From positions 160,001-224,000 of the forward strand of contig CAWABA010000009.1 in the NCBI GenBank assembly GCA_963780185.1: 64,000 bases of DNA, written 5' to 3'. Positions 4,967-20,178 of the stretch are shown here, one piece after another (within the stretch, counting starts at the first letter, position 1; the number at the start of each line of letters is the position of its first letter). Source of the DNA: Candidatus Bathyarchaeota archaeon. Lineage in GTDB: Archaea > Thermoproteota > Bathyarchaeia > Bathyarchaeales > Bathycorpusculaceae. The position numbers were made by a program, and so were the translations under genes. Below the pieces are notes generated by a model. The model ran no database searches. It saw nothing but the letters and a program-made list of their open reading frames with translations, and had not been told where the DNA came from.

Positions 4967-7858
4967 ATGCAGAATCAACCCACCGTTTTCAATTTGCTTG
5001 CTGCACCTGTTCAAAAAGCGTTAGCCGAGCTTGGCTTCATCGACCCCACTTCTCCGCAGACCCAAGCGTTCCCAGCGGTGATCGAAGGCAAAAACGTTCT
5101 TCTAATTGCCCCAACCGGAAGCGGAAAAACAGAGGCAGTTCTTCTACCCGTCTTCTCCAAGCTGATTGAACAGCCAACCCAAGGTCAGAAGGGAATAAGG
5201 GTGCTCTACATTACGCCTCTTCGCGCCTTAAACCGCGACATGCTAAAACGCCTGACACTTTGGGCGCAGAAACTTGGCTTTACCGTGGAAGTCCGTCATG
5301 GCGACACCGAGCAGAAAACGCGGCGAATGCAAGCCAAAAACCCGCCGACCCTGCTGGTTACCACACCTGAAACCCTGCAGGCAGTGCTTCCCGGAGCCCA
5401 AATGCGTCAGCACCTGCGAAACGTCGAAGTCGTCATCGTGGACGAGGTGCATGATTTGGCTTCAAGCAAACGCGGCGCCCAACTTTCCATTGCTCTTGAG
5501 CGGCTACAGTTGGTTACGGGCAGGGGCTTCCAGAGAATCGGTTTGTCAGCAACTGTCGGGAACCCGCAGGAAATCGCCAAGTACATCGCTGGAGATCGCC
5601 GAAAAATAAGCATCATAGAAGCCTCGCCTCAGAAAAGCTACCGCTACAACGTAGAAAACCCAACGCCGACCGAAGCTGATTACGAGTTGGCTGGAAAGTT
5701 GGAGACGTCGCCTGAAGCTGCGGCAAGGATTAAGCGGATTTTGGAGCTTGTGGATTCGCATAAGTCAACGCTTGTTTTCGTTAACAGCCGCACGGTCGCG
5801 GAGGTTTTGGGGCATAAGCTTCAGCAGCTTAAACGGGACGACATCGCGGTTCATCATGGCTCCATCAGTAAAGAGGAAAGAATCGCGATTGAAGACGAGT
5901 TCAAGGCTGGGCAACTGAAAGCCATCATTTGCACGAGTACTTTGGAGTTGGGCATAGACATCGGCAACGTGGATTTGGTTGTCCAGTATATGTCGCCTCG
6001 GCAGGTAAACAGCCTCATTCAACGAGTCGGCAGAAGTGGACACAGCTTAGACAGGGCTTCTGAGGGCACTATAATCACGGTTTACCCCGACGACACCTTG
6101 GAAGCTTTGGCGTCGATAAAAAACGCCAAAAACAACCTGATTGAACCCGTGCTGATGCATGAGGGGGCGCTTGATGTTTTGTCGCATCAAATCGCTGGGC
6201 TGCTAATGGATCTGCAACAGGTCAGTCTGGATGAGTTGTCGCGTCTGCTGCATAGGTCGTATCTGTACCGAAACTTGGGGAAAAATGAGTTGCTGGACAT
6301 GATACACTTTTTAGATAGCCTAAACCATTTAAGATTCGACGAAGTCGACCAAGTTTTGACTAAAACACGCCGAACCCGCGAATACTACTACAGCAACCTC
6401 TCGATGATTCCAGACGAACGACGCTACCCCGTCATAAACATCCTCTCCGACCGAAAAATCGGCACGTTAGGAGACGAATTCATGGCGTTGCATGCGCGGG
6501 TGGGGTTGAATTTCATCATGAAGGGCAAGGTGTGGCGTATTGTGCAGATTGAAGATGAAGCGGGAACCGTGCATGTGTTGCCGTCTGAAGACCCGTTTGC
6601 GTCTGTTCCCGGCTGGGACGGAGAAATCTTGCCTGTGCCCTTCGAGCTTGCCCAGCAAACAGGGCGCAACAGGGAACGAATTGCGCAGGTGCTCAGGGAG
6701 ACTGGAGAAGTTAAGGCTGCTGCTGAGGTTTTAGCCAAGGAATTAGGCTCAGACAAAGACAGCATGCTTGAGGCAATCTCCGAGGTTGACGAACAAATAA
6801 GGCAGAACGCGCCTCTGCCCACTGAGAAACATGTTGTTCTGGAGGTTTACGACAAATACCTGATTGTTCACGCTTGCTTCGGTGAGTTGGTTAACAAGAC
6901 ACTGGGCGGCGTCTTCGACACAGTGCTGTCCGAGCGCGAACTCATCACGGGTTGGTGGACAGACGGCTACCGAATCCTACTTGAGTTGGCGCGCAAACCC
7001 AACAAGGAAGAAGTCGCCGAGCTTCCCAAAACCCTGTTCGGGCTCAGTGACAAAGCGGTTGACTCGGCGTTTGAGAAGTATTTGGAAGCCAAGTTCCCGT
7101 TCGGCTACAAGATGAAGGCGGTGGCGGAGCGCTTCGGCGTTTTGCCCCGTGGAAAAACGATGAGTCACGAGCGGCAAGCTGAGCTGCGGGCGCGGTTTGA
7201 CAACACGCCTGTTTACCGTGAAACCATCCGCGAAGCAATGATGGAAAAAGTCGATTTGCCCCAAACCAAACAAATCATGCATGACGTGGCAGCGGGAAAA
7301 ATCAAACTAACAACCTACCTAAGCTACGAAAAACCGACGCCTTTAGCCTACCATATTCTGTCAAAATACGCCGACGTCACCGAGTTGATGGCTCCTGAAC
7401 GAGTCATCGTGAACAATATTGACAAGCTCAAGATGGCGATAGATGCCCGAACGATAACGTTGATTTGCCTGAAATGTTCTCAGTGGACGGGACAGGAAAA
7501 AATCAAGGATTTGCCCATGCAGCCCCAGTGCCCCAAATGCGGTTCTGGACTTTTGGCGCCGCTTTACCGCAGCCAAGACGCCAACCAACTGTGGGATGCT
7601 TTGGCGCGAAGACGAGAAGGCAAAGAACTAACCCCGGAAGAACTCAAAGAGCTTAGCCAAGCGCGGCGGAAGGCGGATTTGATTTTGAGTTACGGCAAGG
7701 ACGCTGTGCGGGCTCTGCAGGTGAAGGGTGTGGGTCCCGAGACGGCGTCGCGGATACTGGGCAAGATGCACTCGGATGAAGACGGGTTCTACATGGACCT
7801 GCTCAAAGCGAAGGTTCAGTACCTGCGGACAAGAGAATATTGGGACAAACAAAATTGA
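4967..7858 (+). CDS. lhr: Lhr-family DEAD/DEAH-box SF2 helicase with a C-terminal Zn-finger
   Basis: Motifs APTGSGKT, TPLRAL, TTPETL, DEVH, GLSAT, HHGS, TSTLELGID and QRVGRSGH. C-terminal CxxC...CPKCG. Confidence 0.95.
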   Translation: MQNQPTVFNLLAAPVQKALAELGFIDPTSPQTQAFPAVIEGKNVLLIAPTGSGKTEAVLLPVFSKLIEQPTQGQKGIRVLYITPLRALNRDMLKRLTLWAQKLGFTVEVRHGDTEQKTRRMQAKNPPTLLVTTPETLQAVLPGAQMRQHLRNVEVVIVDEVHDLASSKRGAQLSIALERLQLVTGRGFQRIGLSATVGNPQEIAKYIAGDRRKISIIEASPQKSYRYNVENPTPTEADYELAGKLETSPEAAARIKRILELVDSHKSTLVFVNSRTVAEVLGHKLQQLKRDDIAVHHGSISKEERIAIEDEFKAGQLKAIICTSTLELGIDIGNVDLVVQYMSPRQVNSLIQRVGRSGHSLDRASEGTIITVYPDDTLEALASIKNAKNNLIEPVLMHEGALDVLSHQIAGLLMDLQQVSLDELSRLLHRSYLYRNLGKNELLDMIHFLDSLNHLRFDEVDQVLTKTRRTREYYYSNLSMIPDERRYPVINILSDRKIGTLGDEFMALHARVGLNFIMKGKVWRIVQIEDEAGTVHVLPSEDPFASVPGWDGEILPVPFELAQQTGRNRERIAQVLRETGEVKAAAEVLAKELGSDKDSMLEAISEVDEQIRQNAPLPTEKHVVLEVYDKYLIVHACFGELVNKTLGGVFDTVLSERELITGWWTDGYRILLELARKPNKEEVAELPKTLFGLSDKAVDSAFEKYLEAKFPFGYKMKAVAERFGVLPRGKTMSHERQAELRARFDNTPVYRETIREAMMEKVDLPQTKQIMHDVAAGKIKLTTYLSYEKPTPLAYHILSKYADVTELMAPERVIVNNIDKLKMAIDARTITLICLKCSQWTGQEKIKDLPMQPQCPKCGSGLLAPLYRSQDANQLWDALARRREGKELTPEELKELSQARRKADLILSYGKDAVRALQVKGVGPETASRILGKMHSDEDGFYMDLLKAKVQYLRTREYWDKQN
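7824..7849 (+). repeat. Direct repeat copy 1: 3' end of lhr
   Basis: TGCGGACAAGAGAATATTGGGACAAA, 24/26 identical to 8600-8625. Confidence 0.9.
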
Positions 7859-7869
7859 ATGTCTTGAAG

Positions 7870-8304
7870 TTAACAGAGTGGGAAGCGATTAATTTCTCTT
7901 ACAACGTCAAAATCTTGGTCGTCGCTAATTATCGTGTTTAGTTTCTTATCAATCGCTGAAGCGACATGGATGGCGTCGCGTGGTTTCAAATCATAGCGGT
8001 TCATTACCGCTTGCGCTTGACTGAGGATGTTTTCGTCAACACTTATTAATTGTAGATTTACGAAACCAAGCAGCTTTTGACCCTCGTTAACGCTTTCACT
8101 CTTGCCCAGCGTCTTTCTTACTGCCCAGACCACTTCATCCCAAGTTAGCGTCGACGTAAACGCCGCAAACTCGGCCTTCGCTATACCCTTCAAGATTTCT
8201 GAAGCGTTTTTTACTCGAATGTCTACTTCTTCAGCGTATAATATTGGGTAAATGAAAACATTTGAGTCAATGTATGCGGGTTCGTTCTTCCACTTCATTT
8301 TCAA
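7870..8304 (-). CDS. vapC: VapC-type PIN-domain toxin
   Basis: PIN acidic motifs YIDSNVF, WDEV, RDAIHVASA and ISDDQDFD. Overlaps the 3' end of the antitoxin gene. Confidence 0.92.
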   Translation of the reverse strand: MKMKWKNEPAYIDSNVFIYPILYAEEVDIRVKNASEILKGIAKAEFAAFTSTLTWDEVVWAVRKTLGKSESVNEGQKLLGFVNLQLISVDENILSQAQAVMNRYDLKPRDAIHVASAIDKKLNTIISDDQDFDVVREINRFPLC

Positions 8305-8518
8305 TTAACTCTTTAATGTTTATCCATTTCTTCAATTTTGGGGATGATGTTTGAGTGAAGTATTCCGCGTAACTTCCGTTAATTTGAGGTTTTTTTATGA
8401 CTATTTCTTGGTCGCGCATCTCGAGGGTAATTTCGACACCTGGCTTTAAACCCAGGGCATCTCTCATCTGTTTGGGGATTACAACCTGTCCTTTTGGTCC
8501 AACATTTCTTTTGGGCGT
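8267..8518 (-). CDS. vapB: AbrB/MazE-type antitoxin (VapB), start uncertain
   Basis: The frame extends upstream of the track ATG as PKRNVGPKGQVVIPKQMRDALGLKPG, an AbrB signature. The likely start is ACG at 8518 after a GGTGA RBS; the alternative is ATG at 8532 with a 1-nt frameshift. Confidence 0.85.
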   Translation of the reverse strand, partial: TPKRNVGPKGQVVIPKQMRDALGLKPGVEITLEMRDQEIVIKKPQINGSYAEYFTQTSSPKLKKWINIKELIENEVEERTRIH

Positions 8519-8599
8519 ACTATCACCGACATATCAATTGGTTCCACCAAGATTTATACTTTCCAACTAATGAGTTATACTTTTCATTCTGGTATGCCT

Positions 8600-8625
8600 T
8601 GCGGACAAGAGACTACTGGGACAAA
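8600..8625 (+). repeat. Direct repeat copy 2: orphaned alternative 3' end of lhr
   Basis: TGCGGACAAGAGACTACTGGGACAAA. 8599-8634 reads LRTRDYWDKNK*, versus LRTREYWDKQN* in lhr. Confidence 0.9.
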
Positions 8626-8673
8626 AACAAGTAACTCGGTCATTTCGTTGTTTGTTAGCGGTTTTCTGGTGCC

Positions 8674-9480
8674 TCAATGGTGCCGCAACAGAAAATTTTG
8701 CCTTTTAATGATAAACAATAGGGCAATAATTACAGCCAACAAGCTTGCAATCACTATTAGAGCTATAGAGCTCATGATTAGCCAAAGGGAAGTGGACGGA
8801 GAACCGCTGGAACCGCCAGCAGTTGAAGTTGGCTTGGATGTGGACGTTTGCGTTGGAGCTGGAGACTGTGTGGACGTTTGAGAGGATGAGGGCGTTGATG
8901 TGTAGCTTAACGGAGTGATTACGTCTATGACAGTTACTGTTTGATTTCGGCTCCATGCGCTTGCTTGACCGGAGAAAGCAGAAGGTATGGGTGGAAAATT
9001 ATGACCCCACGATATGACCCCTATCATTGCTTCAACTTGGATGTTCACTGTTCGGTTGAGAAAAGTTGACATGCTGTAGATTGGAAGGGTAATATTTGTG
9101 TAGCTGCCACTTGAAGCAGTCGGGTATGTACCGGCATCGAACAATTCGGTCCAACCCCAACTAGACTGGTCGACGGTTATTCGTACGTTGTACAAGAGGC
9201 TTCCCGAATTAGCAGGAACATTCTGATTTACAACAACCAAGGTAATAGTGTTGTACCACTCATTCTGGCCAAGTTGAGCCACAATTTGTCCTGTCAGGGG
9301 GTCTAACGAATATGTGGTTGGCACATCGCTATGCGCAATCCCCATTACAACGGTGAATTGTGGGACAGACGGTGTAGGTGTCGTCTGTGCGTATGCAAAT
9401 CTAACGACCAATGGACTCAAGCTTGAAATAGCGATAGTGAGAGTAAGAATCAATGCCACGCTTCTGCAGAGTTTACCCAT
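8674..9480 (-). CDS. Secreted, C-terminally membrane-anchored surface protein
   Basis: Signal peptide, PSVPQFTV N-terminal motif, S/T/P linker, and a C-terminal TM helix followed by basic residues. Confidence 0.8.
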   Translation of the reverse strand: MGKLCRSVALILTLTIAISSLSPLVVRFAYAQTTPTPSVPQFTVVMGIAHSDVPTTYSLDPLTGQIVAQLGQNEWYNTITLVVVNQNVPANSGSLLYNVRITVDQSSWGWTELFDAGTYPTASSGSYTNITLPIYSMSTFLNRTVNIQVEAMIGVISWGHNFPPIPSAFSGQASAWSRNQTVTVIDVITPLSYTSTPSSSQTSTQSPAPTQTSTSKPTSTAGGSSGSPSTSLWLIMSSIALIVIASLLAVIIALLFIIKRQNFLLRHH

Positions 9481-9519
9481 ACTTAGCCATTAGCGACCAA
9501 AGACGATAAAAGGCTATTC

Positions 9520-9559
9520 GTAAAGGTTCCTTGACTAAGCAGGTCAAGGTTTCTTGACT
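9520..9559. promoter_or_regulatory. Tandem palindromic operator candidates between divergent genes
   Basis: GTAAAG-GTTC-CTTGAC (9520-9535) and GTCAAG-GTTT-CTTGAC (9543-9558), 23 bp apart. Confidence 0.55.
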
Positions 9560-9634
9560 GTTCCTTCTCGTCGTCAAAAAAGGATGCGATAAGGATTTTA
9601 ACCCTGCCTAAACCTATGTTTTAGGAAAATTCCG

Positions 9635-10354
9635 ATGACCCTCAAAGCTGTCTTGTTTGACATGTTCGATACGTTGATGATGATTAGGAAAAACAACGAT
9701 TTCGCAAGCCCCTCCATGCTGCATATGTACCAGTTCCTGGTCAAAAACGGGGTAGATGTTCCGTTGGAGCGGTTTCAAGCGGCGTACAGCAAAGCCCGCG
9801 ATGTGCTTTACGCGAAGGCTGACCCCAAGCTGGAGGAGCCTCATTTTAACGTTCGAATCGCGTTGGCTCTGAAGATGCTGAGCTACAGCTACGACGCCTA
9901 CAGCCCTCTCGTCGTGTCTGCCAGCGCCGTTTTCTGTGAAGAATTCATGAACCACGTCTACTTGGACGGCGACGCTGAAGCCGTGCTGCGTAGCCTGCAT
10001 GGCAAGTACAAGCTGGGTATTGTTTCGAATTATGCTATTCCCGAATGCGTCTTCGAACTGCTCAAAACACACGGCTTAGACGCCCTGTTTGACGCGGTTG
10101 TGGTGTCGGGAGCGGTTAACAAACGCAAGCCCAGCCCAGAAATCTTCAACCGAACCCTGAAAGCCATGGGCATTTCAGCGGCTGAAGCGGTTTTTGTCGG
10201 CGACACCTTGGATGCAGACGTTGAAGGCCCCAAATCAGTCGGCATGAAAACAATCTACATCAAAAGACGCGAGGAAAAGCCGATTAAAAACGTCAAGCCA
10301 GACGTAACCATAACCAGCTTAACTGAACTTCCATTGCTTCTTCAGCAGTTATAA
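9635..10354 (+). CDS. HAD-superfamily hydrolase (IA)
   Basis: Motifs LFDMFDTL, IVSN, KPSPEIF and FVGDT..AD. Confidence 0.92.
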   Translation: MTLKAVLFDMFDTLMMIRKNNDFASPSMLHMYQFLVKNGVDVPLERFQAAYSKARDVLYAKADPKLEEPHFNVRIALALKMLSYSYDAYSPLVVSASAVFCEEFMNHVYLDGDAEAVLRSLHGKYKLGIVSNYAIPECVFELLKTHGLDALFDAVVVSGAVNKRKPSPEIFNRTLKAMGISAAEAVFVGDTLDADVEGPKSVGMKTIYIKRREEKPIKNVKPDVTITSLTELPLLLQQL

Positions 10355-16414: not shown

Positions 16415-16641
16415 TCAATTCACCTTTTTATTTTTACCATTACTTCGCCGAGCTTTTTAGTCTAACTTACACATTTCTGTCTAAACAGAATAGCGCTGAC
16501 ATCATCTTTAACTCTTATACCGCAAGCCCAATGGACTTTTTTTCAGCGTGTATATCTGTACATATATACGTGCATATTCTCGACATATTAACAATGTATA
16601 AGATTGTACTCCGCATTTCTGTCTCTGCAGAGGTAATCAAA

Positions 16642-17301
16642 TTGTCAGAAAACTTCGCAAAAAAGTGGGAAAGCAAGCGGGATGACACTCCATTCCAAAA
16701 CCGCCTTAAAGACGCAGTAAAGCCACCGGGGCCACTAAAGCCACGACTAGACTTTGCAGTCAGACGCATCGATCTTCAAGTCCAGAAGCTTGACCAAGCA
16801 ACTGACAGGTTCAGCCAAAGAGACAAAGCAATTTTCGCAAGAATTGTTGACGCATACGCAAAACATGACAGTGCACGCGCAAATGTCTTCGCAAACGAAC
16901 TAGCTGAAGTACGCAAAATGTCAAAATTAATCATGAACGCTAAACTTGCACTCGAACAGATCACTTTACGTTTACGAACAGTATCCGAGCTAGGCGACGT
17001 AGTTTCAACCTTAGGTCCAGCCGTTGGAGTTCTACGTTCCGTCCGATCAGGCTTAGTAAGCGTGTTCCCAGAAGCAGAAAATGAACTGGGCGAAATCGGC
17101 AACATGCTAAGCGGAATAATGATCGAAGCAGGCCAAGGAAGCGGAATGACACTGAACTTTGACACAGTAAACGAGGATGCATCAAAGATACTCACCGAAG
17201 CCGCAACAGTCGCAGAGCAGAAGATAAAAGACAAGTTCCCAGATCTGCCGCCTGGAATGCCAGCAACCCCACAAACAGAGAAATCCACACAGGGTTTCTA
17301 A
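16642..17301 (+). CDS. cdvB: ESCRT-III (Snf7-family) CdvB paralogue without a winged-helix domain
   Basis: Snf7 core ARANVFANELAEVRK...LEQITLRLRTVSELGD and a C-terminal FPDLP. Start moved to TTG 16642 after a GAGGT RBS. Confidence 0.9.
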   Translation: MSENFAKKWESKRDDTPFQNRLKDAVKPPGPLKPRLDFAVRRIDLQVQKLDQATDRFSQRDKAIFARIVDAYAKHDSARANVFANELAEVRKMSKLIMNAKLALEQITLRLRTVSELGDVVSTLGPAVGVLRSVRSGLVSVFPEAENELGEIGNMLSGIMIEAGQGSGMTLNFDTVNEDASKILTEAATVAEQKIKDKFPDLPPGMPATPQTEKSTQGF

Positions 17302-17320
17302 AATAGGAGGATAAAACACA

Positions 17321-18037
17321 ATGTCCAACTCCAATCTTTTTCTTTATATTGGTAAACCCGTAAAGAACGAGTATGGCCGAGTAATCGGTAAAATTGCTTC
17401 ATTTGCACTAACACCCAGTGGAAAATTCGATGCTGTCTACGTTGAATTTGGCGATGGCCAGTTCACGAAGCAGCCCATGGAAAGCTTACGCTTTAATGGC
17501 GCTGAAATCACTTTCATCACAAAAATCAAATCCCAATCAGGCATCTTATGCGACCACATACCCTTGATCTGGCGCAAAGACCAAGCTCTCAAAGACCTTC
17601 TGGACAAGAAAAAGATCACTCCGGAAGTCTTCCAGGACCTTCACAACAGCTTCACCAACGTGCTCTCCTCACTTAGGAAAGACGCTCAGGAAATCGTCGA
17701 CGACGCAACCGTTGAAATCGAACGGTGCAAAGACGAAATAACCTCTCTTAGCTACGCCATCGCTAACCTGGAAATTGAGCATGAGATAGGCAAGGTAGAT
17801 GAAGAAAACTACAAGAATGCCTTTGCCGCGCTTCAAGATGCCCTTAGACGTGCAACTTCAGAAAGAACAGACTACGAACTGACGAAAAGCAAAGTTTCAA
17901 GCGTGCTCCTCGGCGACAACCAAGATGTTCTACAACGATCGAAGACTTACGCTGAACAAGTGAACAATGCAGCTCAGAAACTGCCTGAACCCCCAGTTGT
18001 TGTCTACGTTAAAGAAGTAGGGAAAGCGGGCATCTAA
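17321..18037 (+). CDS. cdvA: Cell division protein CdvA
   Basis: N-terminal PRC-barrel-like IGKPVKNEYGRVIGK, coiled-coil middle, C-terminal PVVVYV peptide. Located in the cdv operon. Confidence 0.9.
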   Translation: MSNSNLFLYIGKPVKNEYGRVIGKIASFALTPSGKFDAVYVEFGDGQFTKQPMESLRFNGAEITFITKIKSQSGILCDHIPLIWRKDQALKDLLDKKKITPEVFQDLHNSFTNVLSSLRKDAQEIVDDATVEIERCKDEITSLSYAIANLEIEHEIGKVDEENYKNAFAALQDALRRATSERTDYELTKSKVSSVLLGDNQDVLQRSKTYAEQVNNAAQKLPEPPVVVYVKEVGKAGI

Positions 18038-18078
18038 TCGCCCAAACAAAGTGGAGACGCCACGCGGAGGGATAAGGC

Positions 18079-18975
18079 ATCAAAGTACTAAGCAACCCCA
18101 CCCCTCCCCCTATCCGTGAAGTCGCCACAAAATCAATAACCACACTAAAAATTCAACAAGGCAAACTTGAACAAGCCAGTTACCGCCTCAAAGAAAGAGA
18201 CCGAATACTTTTTGAATCGTGCATGGGCGCACTGAAAAAAAATAACCGTGAAAAAGCCGCCATATGCGCGACGGAACTGGCTGAAGTAAGAAAACTTGTA
18301 AAGTTTCTCTACAACGTCCAATTAGCTATTGAACGAGTAATGATGCGCCTCGAAACCATAAGAGAACTAGGCGACATCGTTACTGATCTAAAGCCTGCCC
18401 TGCGTTTACTGCAAGGCGTTTCCCAAGAGCTGTTCCAGGTTCTTCCCGACGTCAGCTCGGAGCTTGACAGCGTTAACGTCGCAATCCAAGACACGTTGCA
18501 CGCAGCCAGCATCACAACTGACGAAAACGTGATTCCTGTCGGCAAAAAAACCGAGGGCGGCGAAGCAATCCTTAAAGAAGTTACATCGTTCATGCAGCAG
18601 AAAATATCTGAAACCCTTCCTGAGCCTCCGATTGGAGCGCCGCAGGTGAAGGAAAAGACCCCCATCAGGGAGATGGTTGCCTTAACCGCAACTTCTTCGC
18701 AGATGATCGGGCACAAAACCACGGAGGAAACCGGGTTTGACCCCGAGAAGTCCCTGTTTTCCTACAAGAAGCAGGAGATAAAAGAGTTCTCGCTTAGAGT
18801 TCAGAACCAGTCGCTTGAAGACGTCTTGATGGAGTATGTCCGCAAGACCAACGGGGAAATCGACCTCAGCCGATGCTCAAGTGAACTTCAAACTTCAAAC
18901 GAAGAAATAGAGCGTGCCCTCGAAAGTTTAGGAACAAAGGGCAAAATAAAAATTGAGTTAAAATCGCCAGAGTAG
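18079..18975 (+). CDS. cdvB: ESCRT-III CdvB with a C-terminal winged-helix domain
   Basis: Snf7 core, LPEPP MIM2-like motif and a wH tail (YVRKTNGEIDL...ALESLGTKGKIKI). The Snf7 helix extends 48 codons upstream of ATG 18223 to ATC 18079, which sits 8 nt after GGAGG. Confidence 0.88.
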   Translation: MKVLSNPTPPPIREVATKSITTLKIQQGKLEQASYRLKERDRILFESCMGALKKNNREKAAICATELAEVRKLVKFLYNVQLAIERVMMRLETIRELGDIVTDLKPALRLLQGVSQELFQVLPDVSSELDSVNVAIQDTLHAASITTDENVIPVGKKTEGGEAILKEVTSFMQQKISETLPEPPIGAPQVKEKTPIREMVALTATSSQMIGHKTTEETGFDPEKSLFSYKKQEIKEFSLRVQNQSLEDVLMEYVRKTNGEIDLSRCSSELQTSNEEIERALESLGTKGKIKIELKSPE

Positions 18976-19002
18976 GAAAAAGGAGAAGGAGAGAGAAAAT
19001 AG

Positions 19003-20178
19003 ATGAGCGCTTCAAACGAACTTGAAAAAGCAGCGACAGCGTATGCCTTGGATGCTGTACGTTTAGATAAGCAAGGCCAAAAGGGAAGAGCAATCACACT
19101 TTACCAAAAAGCAATCGAAGCCCTCTTGCAGCTTGTCCAACTTTACCCCGAATACGGTTTAAACAAAGTCTACGTTCAGCGAGCAATCGCCTACCAGGAA
19201 AGAATCAAAGCGTTGCAGGGAGCCGTTTCCTCTACAGAGATGAATGAGGCGGCAAACAACAGCGAAGGCGGAGGAGCCACAATGGACGCCAGCGGCGGAG
19301 TCTCAAAGCCAAATGAAGAGCTTGTCATGACTGAGAAACCTAAAGTAAACTGGGACGAAGTAGTAGGTTTAGACGTCGCAAAAAAAGCCGTCAAAGAAGC
19401 TATCGTTTATCCAGTTCAAAGACCCGACCTGTTCCCGCTAGGTTGGCCGCGAGGTATACTGCTTTTCGGTCCTCCAGGCTGCGGCAAAACCCTGTTGGCA
19501 GCGGCGGTTGCAACGGAGATCGACGCCAACTTCTACTCGATTGATGCAGCTTCCATCATGTCTAAGTGGCTTGGGGAAGCAGAACAGAACGTCGCTAAAC
19601 TTTTCGGTTCAGCCCGCAAATCCGCAATCGAAGGCAGACCAGCAATCGTGTTCGTCGACGAGTTAGATTCTTTGATGGGTGCGCACTCAAACGAAGTCGG
19701 CGGAGAAATCCGTGTCCGCAACCAATTCCTCAAAGAAATGGACGGCATAGTGGACAAAGGCAAAAACCTTCACGTTTACGTCATCGGCGCAACCAACAAG
19801 CCGTGGGATCTGGACTGGGCATTTATCCGTCGGTTCCAGAAGAGAATCCTTGTCCCGCTCGCAGACAACGCAACAAGACTCAACATGTTCAAAGTTTACA
19901 CGAGCACTCTGCAGATCGCCGGCGACGTTGAACTCGACGAGTTGGCGCGGATTTCCGAAGGCTTCTCAGGAAGCGACATACGGGACGTTTGCCAATCAGC
20001 ACAGCTTAGTCTGATAGGAGAATTCTTCGAGTCAGGCCAAGCAATGGACAAAGCAGCGAATCCGCGGGCTCTGACGATGGCTGACTTCCGACAGATCCTT
20101 GAAGAACGCAAACCAAGCGTCTCCCTTGACATGCTAACGGCATATAACCGTTGGTTCGAAGCATTCAAAGCACTCTAA
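19003..20178 (+). CDS. cdvC: Vps4-like AAA+ ATPase CdvC (MIT + AAA)
   Basis: N-terminal MIT domain (AVRLDKQG...AITLYQKAI), GPPGCGKT, FVDELDS, ATNKPWDLD and RRFQKRI. Confidence 0.95.
   Translation: MSASNELEKAATAYALDAVRLDKQGQKGRAITLYQKAIEALLQLVQLYPEYGLNKVYVQRAIAYQERIKALQGAVSSTEMNEAANNSEGGGATMDASGGVSKPNEELVMTEKPKVNWDEVVGLDVAKKAVKEAIVYPVQRPDLFPLGWPRGILLFGPPGCGKTLLAAAVATEIDANFYSIDAASIMSKWLGEAEQNVAKLFGSARKSAIEGRPAIVFVDELDSLMGAHSNEVGGEIRVRNQFLKEMDGIVDKGKNLHVYVIGATNKPWDLDWAFIRRFQKRILVPLADNATRLNMFKVYTSTLQIAGDVELDELARISEGFSGSDIRDVCQSAQLSLIGEFFESGQAMDKAANPRALTMADFRQILEERKPSVSLDMLTAYNRWFEAFKAL

Follow-up and report, generated by a model that had tools for sequence, protein, structure and literature searches.

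A vapBC toxin–antitoxin cassette between two copies of the lhr gene end in a Bathyarchaeota genome and its relatives

Integration of elements into protein-coding genes, within their 3'-distal parts, has been described in archaea, and the available text of a study on Thaumarchaeota assigns 14 of 68 elements to this class (PMC6563490, Krupovic et al. 2019). According to the same text, the stop codon of the target gene is replaced by element sequence, relatives with empty sites are found, and reused sites carry arrays of elements (PMC6563490). The vapBC genes of Sulfolobus islandicus, in the part of the source at hand, occupy variable, horizontally acquired regions and tRNA insertions (PMC3718332). 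Here, we analyzed a stretch of 64,000 nucleotides (nt) from a Candidatus Bathyarchaeota archaeon (assembly GCA_963780185.1, contig CAWABA010000009.1, positions 160,001 to 224,000; hereafter the window), in which a vapBC toxin–antitoxin (TA) pair lies between two copies of the 3' end of lhr, a gene for an Lhr-family helicase. The tail joined to lhr is referred to as copy 1, and the second tail, beyond the presumed vapB promoter, as copy 2. G000 denotes the genome of the window (2.75 Mb), the other G numbers denote relatives of the same genus, and L numbers denote the loci that were compared. The genus sample comprised 120 genomes, all of which are assemblies, many of them metagenome-assembled, and the relatives are not independent of one another.

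The locus resembles elements such as NitEve-E2 of Nitrososphaera evergladensis, for which the accessible text describes a direct-repeat bracket, a replaced gene end with a new stop codon, and an empty site in a relative (PMC6563490). As far as that text goes, the elements also share with our locus the reuse of sites that gives rise to arrays, as in genome G063 (PMC6563490). However, the elements treated there are multigene and usually carry an integrase or Cas1, and the example att site measures 13 bp, whereas the lhr insert is 0.75 kb long, contains vapBC only, has no recombinase, and shows a duplication of approximately 26 to 230 nt; the targets that the accessible text names do not include lhr (PMC6563490). 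The S. islandicus vapBC genes differ in that they are flanked by degenerate insertion sequence (IS) copies or lie inside larger clusters, and the portion of the source at hand mentions no bracket formed by the end of the target gene itself (PMC3718332). The architecture of the lhr locus therefore matches the known 3'-distal integration, but because it lacks a recombinase and carries vapBC only, we regard it as a variant of that kind. Insertion near the 3' ends of protein genes is established for archaea, and a recombinase-free cassette with only a TA pair would be a new form of it. Our literature search found no description of a TA-only unit bracketed by the end of its target gene, which is no proof of absence, and no description of homology-based integration as a recurrent route of TA cassettes to one gene end.

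Three further systems offer points of comparison. Prophages e14 and 21, which reside in icd of Escherichia coli, carry an alternative 3' end that keeps the gene functional and leaves the displaced end downstream. The replacement gene end and the displaced end probably have their counterparts at lhr, whereas the prophages are bacterial, encode their own integrase, and are far larger inserts. The TA cassettes of bacterial chromosomal integrons bear promoters, have no recombinase of their own, and are mobilized in trans by way of attC hairpins and IntI; the lhr cassette differs from them in that its repeats duplicate the end of a host gene. Short or one-sided homology, variable borders, and no dedicated enzyme characterize Campbell-type integration by host recombination and homology-facilitated illegitimate recombination, and the lhr locus resembles them in the lhr anchor, the variable borders, and the lack of a dedicated enzyme.

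The two tail copies share a core of 26 nt, located at 7824–7849 (TGCGGACAAGAGAATATTGGGACAAA) and 8600–8625 (TGCGGACAAGAGACTACTGGGACAAA). The cores lie on the same strand, 776 nt apart, and are identical at 24 of 26 positions, and the match extends to 27/31 and 29/36. With up to three mismatches allowed, the window contains two matches to the 26-mer, a count seen in none of 100 dinucleotide shuffles. These two copies are also the only ones in the whole genome of G000, and the 26-mer is therefore not a dispersed repeat. A sequence-only reading of the window, made earlier by a model, had reported the repeat and had named a dispersed 26-mer as the finding that would speak against its interpretation; alignment, shuffles, and genome scan agree with the former and rule out the latter. 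Through copy 1, lhr ends in LRTREYWDKQN and a stop codon, and copy 2, read in frame, gives LRTRDYWDKNK and a stop codon. One mismatch, GAA>GAC, exchanges E for D, and the other, TAT>TAC, is a synonymous Tyr change, as the sequence-only reading had stated. What ends in copy 2, however, is a 46-codon open reading frame (ORF) at 8494–8634 that has no relation to lhr and crosses the vapB start and promoter in antisense, so the clean frame is no evidence of use. The earlier claim that lhr now has two alternative tails is thus not borne out, as lhr continues into copy 1 alone, and copy 2 is probably a non-coding relic. Relative to G109, the last two lhr codons (QN, 7850–7858) result from a change of the stop codon, TAA>CAA (GACAAGTAAAACTGA versus GACAAACAAAATTGA), and the lhr genes of all 16 other genomes terminate in WDK and a stop codon. 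Compared with the genus consensus, which ends in GGGACAAATAA, copy 2 has six additional nucleotides ahead of its stop (8626–8634).

Between the copies, the ORF list and Pfam reveal no ORF beyond vapB and vapC, hence no recombinase and no transposase ORF, which agrees with the earlier description of a recombinase-free AbrB-VapC pair. The vapB stop (8267) overlaps the vapC start (8298/8304), with the antitoxin gene directly upstream of the toxin gene, and by domains and gene order the two are predicted to form a type II TA pair with presumed activity. Translation of vapC probably begins at the ATG at 8298; its stop lies 11 nt past that of lhr, and the two genes are convergent. The acidic residues D11, E55, D88, E89, D108, D126, D127, and D131 of VapC, which would include those of the PIN active site, are invariant in 18 of 18 aligned relatives. 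At the vapB codon homologous to the start (8518–8516), G000 and G109 have ACG; over the 30 cassettes compared, this codon is ATG in 25, GTG in two, CTG in one, and ACG in two. A TGA lies five codons upstream of the ACG in G000, and the first canonical in-frame start is an ATG at 8467, which would drop the first strand of the AbrB fold. Despite the ACG, vapB is under strong constraint, with a ratio of nonsynonymous to synonymous divergence (dN/dS) of 0.03 between G000 and G109. The region upstream of vapB is kept in relatives and is presumed to be an archaeal promoter/operator. No inverted repeats are present at the cassette ends, the only such pair, of 17 nt and 82% identity, being set some 50 nt inward from either end. 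A transposon or IS was considered and rejected, as there are no terminal inverted repeats and no transposase, and the repeats are imperfect and copy a gene end.

Table 1 Features of the lhr–vapBC locus (positions in the window)
Feature	Position	Strand	Basis and remarks
lhr, Lhr-family DEAD/DEAH helicase gene, 963 amino acids (aa), intact	4967..7858	+	ORF; Pfam DEAD, Helicase_C, WH_Lhr, DEAD_assoc
Copy 1, working lhr end	7824..7858	+	26-nt core 7824–7849, then CAAAATTGA
vapC, PIN-domain toxin gene (predicted)	7870..8304	−	Pfam PIN PF01850, E=1.6e-16, 61.4 bits (cut-off 23.6)
vapB, AbrB/MazE-type antitoxin gene (predicted)	8267..8518	−	Pfam MazE_antitoxin, E=9.2e-11; NCBIfam AbrB TIGR01439
vapBC upstream region, right-hand end of conserved cassette	8535..8599	−	Two 15-nt direct repeats, 8551–8565 and 8572–8586, with TTTATAC/GTTATAC boxes
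Copy 2, probable displaced relic of the original lhr end	8600..8634	+	Core 8600–8625, in-frame stop 8632–8634; homologues in G109 and G101
Gene for a 268-aa predicted secreted/membrane protein	8674..9480	−	ORF, no Pfam match; between copy 2 and HAD
HAD-family hydrolase gene	9635..10354	+	Right-hand neighbor of lhr, conserved in genus

To see the site without the cassette, we turn to the relatives. An lhr orthologue is present in most congeners searched, and in a comparison of the lhr–HAD neighborhood of 17 genus genomes over 9 kb, HAD follows lhr on the same strand in 15. The gap between the two genes is 58–59 nt in G005, G014, and G015 and 105–121 nt in G020 and G009. It amounts to approximately 1.4–1.6 kb, with an amino-acid permease gene, in G010, G001, G013, G022, and G023, and to 4487 nt in G012, where it holds a permease gene and a gene for an 881-aa secreted protein. 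The variation of the gap from 58 to 4487 nt implies that empty sites exist and that the place is a hotspot. Empty sites, which the sequence-only reading had suggested looking for in related genomes, are thus present in congeners, for example those with the shortest gaps. In G101, copy 2 and the next 100 nt match the empty junction of lhr end and permease promoter in G013 at 115 of 144 columns, whereas copy 1 and its downstream DNA, taken as a control, match that junction at only 85 of 150. Copy 2 of G101 is therefore colinear with an empty junction, suggesting that it is the displaced original lhr end. Likewise, copy 2 of G109 is followed by the HAD promoter region, as at empty sites.

The same bracket around vapBC occurs in 3 of the 120 genus genomes (G000, G109, and G101), with a copy 2 beyond the vapB promoter of 28 nt in G109 and of 38–42 nt in G101. 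In a test of flank repeats around 29 cassettes, these three genomes had z scores of 12, 13, and 20, respectively. High scores were also obtained for G092 (52.6, a 74-nt repeat at a non-lhr locus) and G078 (6.7, a low-complexity T/A run), and the remaining 24 were at most 3.6. The tail motif is present in 71 of the 120 genomes and occurs twice in four, namely the three above and G063, which retains a copy 2 remnant of approximately 12 nt at the same place. Among metagenome loci with enough right flank, copy 2 was found in 1 of 10, and that locus is G109-like. Copy 2 is therefore rare. Across insertions, the repeats measure approximately 26–31, 28, 38–42, and 230 nt, and all take in the last lhr codons. 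Overall, an insertion that left copy 2 as the displaced lhr end is a reading that we hold with considerable confidence. The attL/attR-like arrangement proposed by the sequence-only reading is borne out in its direct repeats, its empty sites, and the colinear copy 2.

The scan of the genus revealed VapC relatives at 58–90% identity. Among the loci compared, the cassette lies directly after the lhr tail in 12 genomes (G000, G109, G063, G110, G101, G002, G079, G016, G047, G112, G071, and G051) and also at 12 metagenome loci. It is found at the same locus in G087 and G019, where lhr is deleted or truncated, and only degraded remnants of it are left in G004 and probably G023. In a tree of 30 cassettes, those of G000 and G109 are sisters with 93% nucleotide identity, and those of G101 and G016 are sisters as well. 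The cassettes are less diverged than their surroundings. Between G000 and G109, the synonymous divergence (dS, by Nei–Gojobori, values near or above 1 being rough) is 0.16 for vapC and 0.33 for vapB, compared with 1.08 for the lhr 3' region, 1.64 for HAD, and 0.50–1.03 for four genes of the Cdv region. Similarly, the proportion of synonymous differences (pS) between G101 and G016 is 0.38 for vapC and 0.37 for vapB, compared with 0.74 for lhr and 0.75 for HAD. By its flanks, the closest genome to G000 is G051, with dS of 0.24–0.81 in six of eight flanking genes and 1.18 and 1.41 in the other two, yet its cassette is a different allele, saturated relative to that of G000 (vapC dS 2.6). The cassette is thus younger than its flanks in two independent pairs, which suggests that it was exchanged after speciation and points to horizontal exchange among species of the genus. 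All three copy 2 carriers belong to these young pairs.

The borders of the young segment can be traced on both sides. On the promoter side, identity between G000 and G109 drops from 92% to 75% and then 64%, with indels, right after approximately 8575. On the lhr side, pS between the two genomes falls toward the stop codon from 0.81 to 0.55 and 0.35 in windows of 30 codons, against genus medians of 0.69–0.75, and the value of the last window is among the lowest 1% of all pairs. The young segment of G000 and G109 accordingly starts within the last 30–60 lhr codons. In the pair of G101 and G016, the last 90 lhr codons all have low pS (0.33–0.49), and the border lies at least 90 codons into lhr. 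The low pS at the lhr end implies that the incoming DNA included the lhr end and that the left border varies. Variable left borders would be the outcome expected of homologous crossovers inside lhr. The high identity of the lhr C-terminus in G016 and G004 (82–84% versus 58%) was set aside as a sign of co-transfer, because conservation is elevated over the final 300 nt in every genome.

Both the cassette and other cargo have landed repeatedly at the lhr 3' end. In G063 (L083, contig C6), repeats of the lhr 3' end of approximately 230 nt at 2711–2945 and 6331–6561, identical at 205 of 230 positions, enclose 3.4 kb with three genes for secreted or Kelch-repeat proteins and no recombinase. The second segment is joined to vapC, and the upstream lhr is split over several frames. 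The secreted-protein genes between the duplicated lhr ends of G063 thus represent the different cargo at one site that the sequence-only reading had proposed to search for. A relic of the lhr tail was also found away from lhr. A contig of only 2.5 kb carries the cassette of G094, with RuBisCO on one side and another PIN/RHH pair on the other, and 28 nt ahead of the vapC stop there is a relic of the lhr tail (GAGAGAATACTGGGACAAACAA). G094 also has an intact lhr (85% identity), on another contig and with no vapBC in the next 1.5 kb; in G000, RuBisCO and lhr are on different contigs. Such a relic was detected in G094 only, and none was found at the non-lhr cassettes of G041, G066, G003, G072, G104, and G100 (scores of at most 20).

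Bracketed TA pairs are not limited to lhr. With a profile of the VapC family, 10 PIN ORFs were identified in G000, of which two have significant flank repeats: the lhr cassette and a PIN/AbrB pair on contig C1 (318170–319026). The latter comprises a 48-nt 3' fragment of tRNA-Ala (318170–318217), a PIN gene (318240–318668, minus strand), an AbrB-type gene (318669–318908, minus strand), and an intact tRNA-Ala(TGC) (318949–319026, minus strand), the fragment and the intact gene being identical at 36 of 48 positions. A genome scan for other TA pairs with duplicated gene ends, as the sequence-only reading had recommended, therefore does yield one. Among metagenome loci of the VapC family, flank repeats (z of at least 5) were found in 7 of 66 testable loci; two of them are 3' parts of tRNAs, and the others are 40–160 nt long.

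Several other repeats were recorded near related cassettes or tRNA-like sequences. In G092 (L171, contig C4, 5214–6429), repeats of approximately 74–95 nt, 1.12 kb apart, surround a more distant vapBC, and a third partial copy lies 1.6 kb further on. In G066 (L169, contig C17, 1226–2413), direct repeats of 65 nt with 98% identity enclose a 146-aa tyrosine-recombinase fragment, and the repeat pair ends 119 nt from a related vapB; a 631-aa ATPase-like ORF (conjugation-type) with a Walker-type GKSGSGKS motif is found nearby. G000 itself has tRNA-like direct repeats 1–3.4 kb apart at C6 735376/738787, C6 894033/897142/899572, C1 11551–14320, and C10 52458/53463. They may be small integrated units or tandem tRNA genes, and ARAGORN predicts a tRNA at some of them only. 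Among the matches listed, the genome-wide direct repeats of G000 are mostly tandem paralogues, tRNA genes, and a CRISPR array.

How could a cassette of this kind enter lhr? In the model that we favor, a 0.75-kb vapBC cassette with its own presumed promoter entered the last 10–14 or so codons of lhr. The incoming DNA supplied a replacement lhr end, copy 1, which is now the gene terminus, while the original end, copy 2, was pushed downstream and persists as a non-coding relic. The lhr-tail copies would serve as portable homology, and no dedicated recombinase would be needed. A tail on incoming or excised DNA would recombine with the resident lhr tail, either in a single crossover of the Campbell type or through a double one whose arms would be lhr 3' sequence and copy 2, and both routes would restore the bracket. 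TA addiction would then hinder loss of the cassette, and in old insertions copy 2 would decay or be deleted. Host recombination is preferred because the duplicated length ranges from approximately 26 to 230 nt, the left border varies, and the G063 cargo has no recombinase. Taken jointly, host recombination on the tail copies and the structural model stand, in our judgment, an even chance of being correct; the route of recombination, a possible excision, and TA activity are inferred. A broader proposal, which we offer tentatively and consider more probably wrong than right, is that TA pairs in these archaea make up a group of recombinase-free homing cassettes, each carrying a copy of the 3' end of its target, be it a protein-gene tail or the 3' part of a tRNA, as portable homology. 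Such a cassette could enter the same site in relatives and restore the gene in which it lands, the displaced end persisting for a time as a scar; the lhr tail would be one landing pad, and the tRNA-Ala bracket in G000 and the seven bracketed metagenome loci would then represent others.

A number of observations weigh against host recombination on the tail copies. For homologous recombination, arms of 26–42 nt are short. In G000, G109, and G101, the right-hand junctions all lie 28–42 nt ahead of the original stop, a narrow band that would fit a preferred, site-specific crossover too. The spacer between promoter and copy 2 differs by indels (17 nt in G000 versus 29 nt in G109), so that copy 2 was not simply co-transferred with the 93%-identical cassette, and the G016 cassette is close to that of G101, yet has no copy 2. 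The raw mismatch changepoint at 7739 is only a rough bound of the young segment, as it is confounded by the conservation of the lhr C-terminus, and the evidence from G094 consists of one short contig. The tRNA-linked brackets around cassette relatives are a classical signature of tyrosine integrases. Finally, no circle or empty-site joint, the former sought at the suggestion of the sequence-only reading, was seen in the contigs of four public runs (X1–X4), which matched the locus in short identical pieces and one G109-type contig, a weak test in which the best run contained 0.16 of the sampled words. The narrow junction band and the tRNA 3' parts, around cassette relatives as well as the second TA pair of G000, speak for the model of the sequence-only reading, which we consider doubtful: a non-autonomous element for which a tyrosine recombinase acting in trans would join an attP-like tail on a circle with the lhr tail (attB), yielding attL (copy 1) and attR (copy 2). 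In addition, archaeal 3'-distal integration into protein genes, as set out in the accessible text, agrees with the bracket, the empty sites, and the rebuilt gene end that has a new stop (PMC6563490), and in G066 a related cassette is situated near a repeat-enclosed tyrosine-recombinase fragment and a conjugation-type ATPase-like ORF. However, no recombinase was found in or beside the cassette in G000 or in any lhr-adjacent locus examined, the repeats differ in length and their copies are not identical, and the young segment has a left border that shifts within lhr. Viral and plasmid contigs gave no hit to the tail motif and no confirmed VapC relative among 111 candidate stretches, and the missing circle junction, weak as that test is, counts on the same side. 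Mobilization in trans at an att site therefore stays among three live mechanisms, with neither a recombinase nor a circle found and with repeat lengths that vary.

The third mechanism, which we judge unlikely, holds that the cassette is the remnant of a larger integrated plasmid or virus from which everything has been deleted but the TA pair, whose loss kills the cell. TA pairs are common cargo of integrated elements, and the S. islandicus vapBC genes lie in horizontally acquired clusters and at tRNA insertions in the available text (PMC3718332). Likewise, the seven metagenome loci with flank repeats enclose little more than vapBC, and G066 ties a related cassette to mobile-element genes. Yet nothing but vapBC adjoins the lhr end at the 12 genus loci with copy 1 and the 12 metagenome loci, with no intermediate among them; the recently exchanged segment of G000 and G109 is already minimal and ends at the promoter side; and a second tail copy further downstream was absent within 8 kb in 16 of 16 other genomes. 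Strictly vertical descent, with vapBC always downstream of lhr and copy 2 as a local accident of slippage or gene conversion, would be in keeping with the widespread and divergent vapBC at this place in the genus and with the lack of copy 2 in most carriers, namely at 9 of the 12 copy 1 loci of the genus and at 9 of the 10 metagenome loci that could be tested. We nevertheless find it very improbable, given that cassette and flanks disagree in synonymous divergence in two species pairs, that copy 2 runs into DNA colinear with empty junctions, and that the same bracket recurs in three distant genomes while other genomes have empty sites with gaps of 58–59 nt. That the bracket is an assembly artefact in G000 is scarcely credible. 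The copy 2 junction is covered in the public-run contigs by one G109-type contig only, which leaves the G000 junction without independent read support. However, an assembler would not be misled by an imperfect repeat of only 26 nt, G109, G101, the metagenome contig L089, and a contig of run X4 show the same architecture, and a 151-nt contig of run X2 crosses the copy 1/vapC junction with no differences.

The locus provides a concrete, datable case of a chromosomal TA pair spreading between species, with the landing site, the scar, and old and young insertions all visible within one genus, and it singles out the lhr 3' end as a hotspot of insertion. Should the cassette move with no recombinase of its own, it would represent a simple route for selfish TA modules into archaeal chromosomes by which the target gene is kept working.

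A possible cost to the host may be reflected in the state of lhr, which is frameshifted, truncated, or gone in many carriers. The gene is frameshifted in G002, G016, G004, and G079, which have the cassette or its remnant at the locus, and G016 and G004 have one 1-nt insertion in common. It is truncated or multiply broken in G063, G047, G051, and G019 and absent in G087. In the cassette-free genomes, the 3' 1.1 kb of lhr is unbroken in 12 of 12 compared, a contrast to which kinship and possible sequencing errors apply. The observations on damaged lhr come from loci L021, L022, L024, L051, L057, L060, L061, L059, L068, and L083. In the window, lhr is assigned to the Lhr family by its domains, with Pfam E-values of 5.7e-38 (DEAD), 5.1e-24 (Helicase_C), 1.8e-10 (WH_Lhr), and 1.7e-23 (DEAD_assoc); its best NCBIfam match, PRK13767, is under the cut-off, as are its NCBIfam equivalog scores.

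The gene for the 268-aa protein is found at this place in G000 only and is missing there in 16 of 16 congeners compared. Its paralogues sit upstream of RuBisCO, and it is separate cargo at the same hotspot. Upstream of this gene, a sequence of approximately 57 nt at 9504–9560 (CGATAAAAGG...TTGACTAAGCAGGTCAAGG...) recurs at no fewer than 12 places in G000, including a position upstream of RuBisCO (contig C7), and is present on a large number of unrelated contigs in each of the four public runs; the family of the 268-aa gene probably shares it as a promoter/operator module. An Rfam scan of the window gave no matches. Further along the window, at 16531–20178, genes for a CdvB-like protein, CdvA, a second CdvB-like protein, and CdvC stand in a row, with clear NCBIfam family matches below the equivalog cut-offs, implying that the host is a Cdv-bearing (TACK) archaeon.

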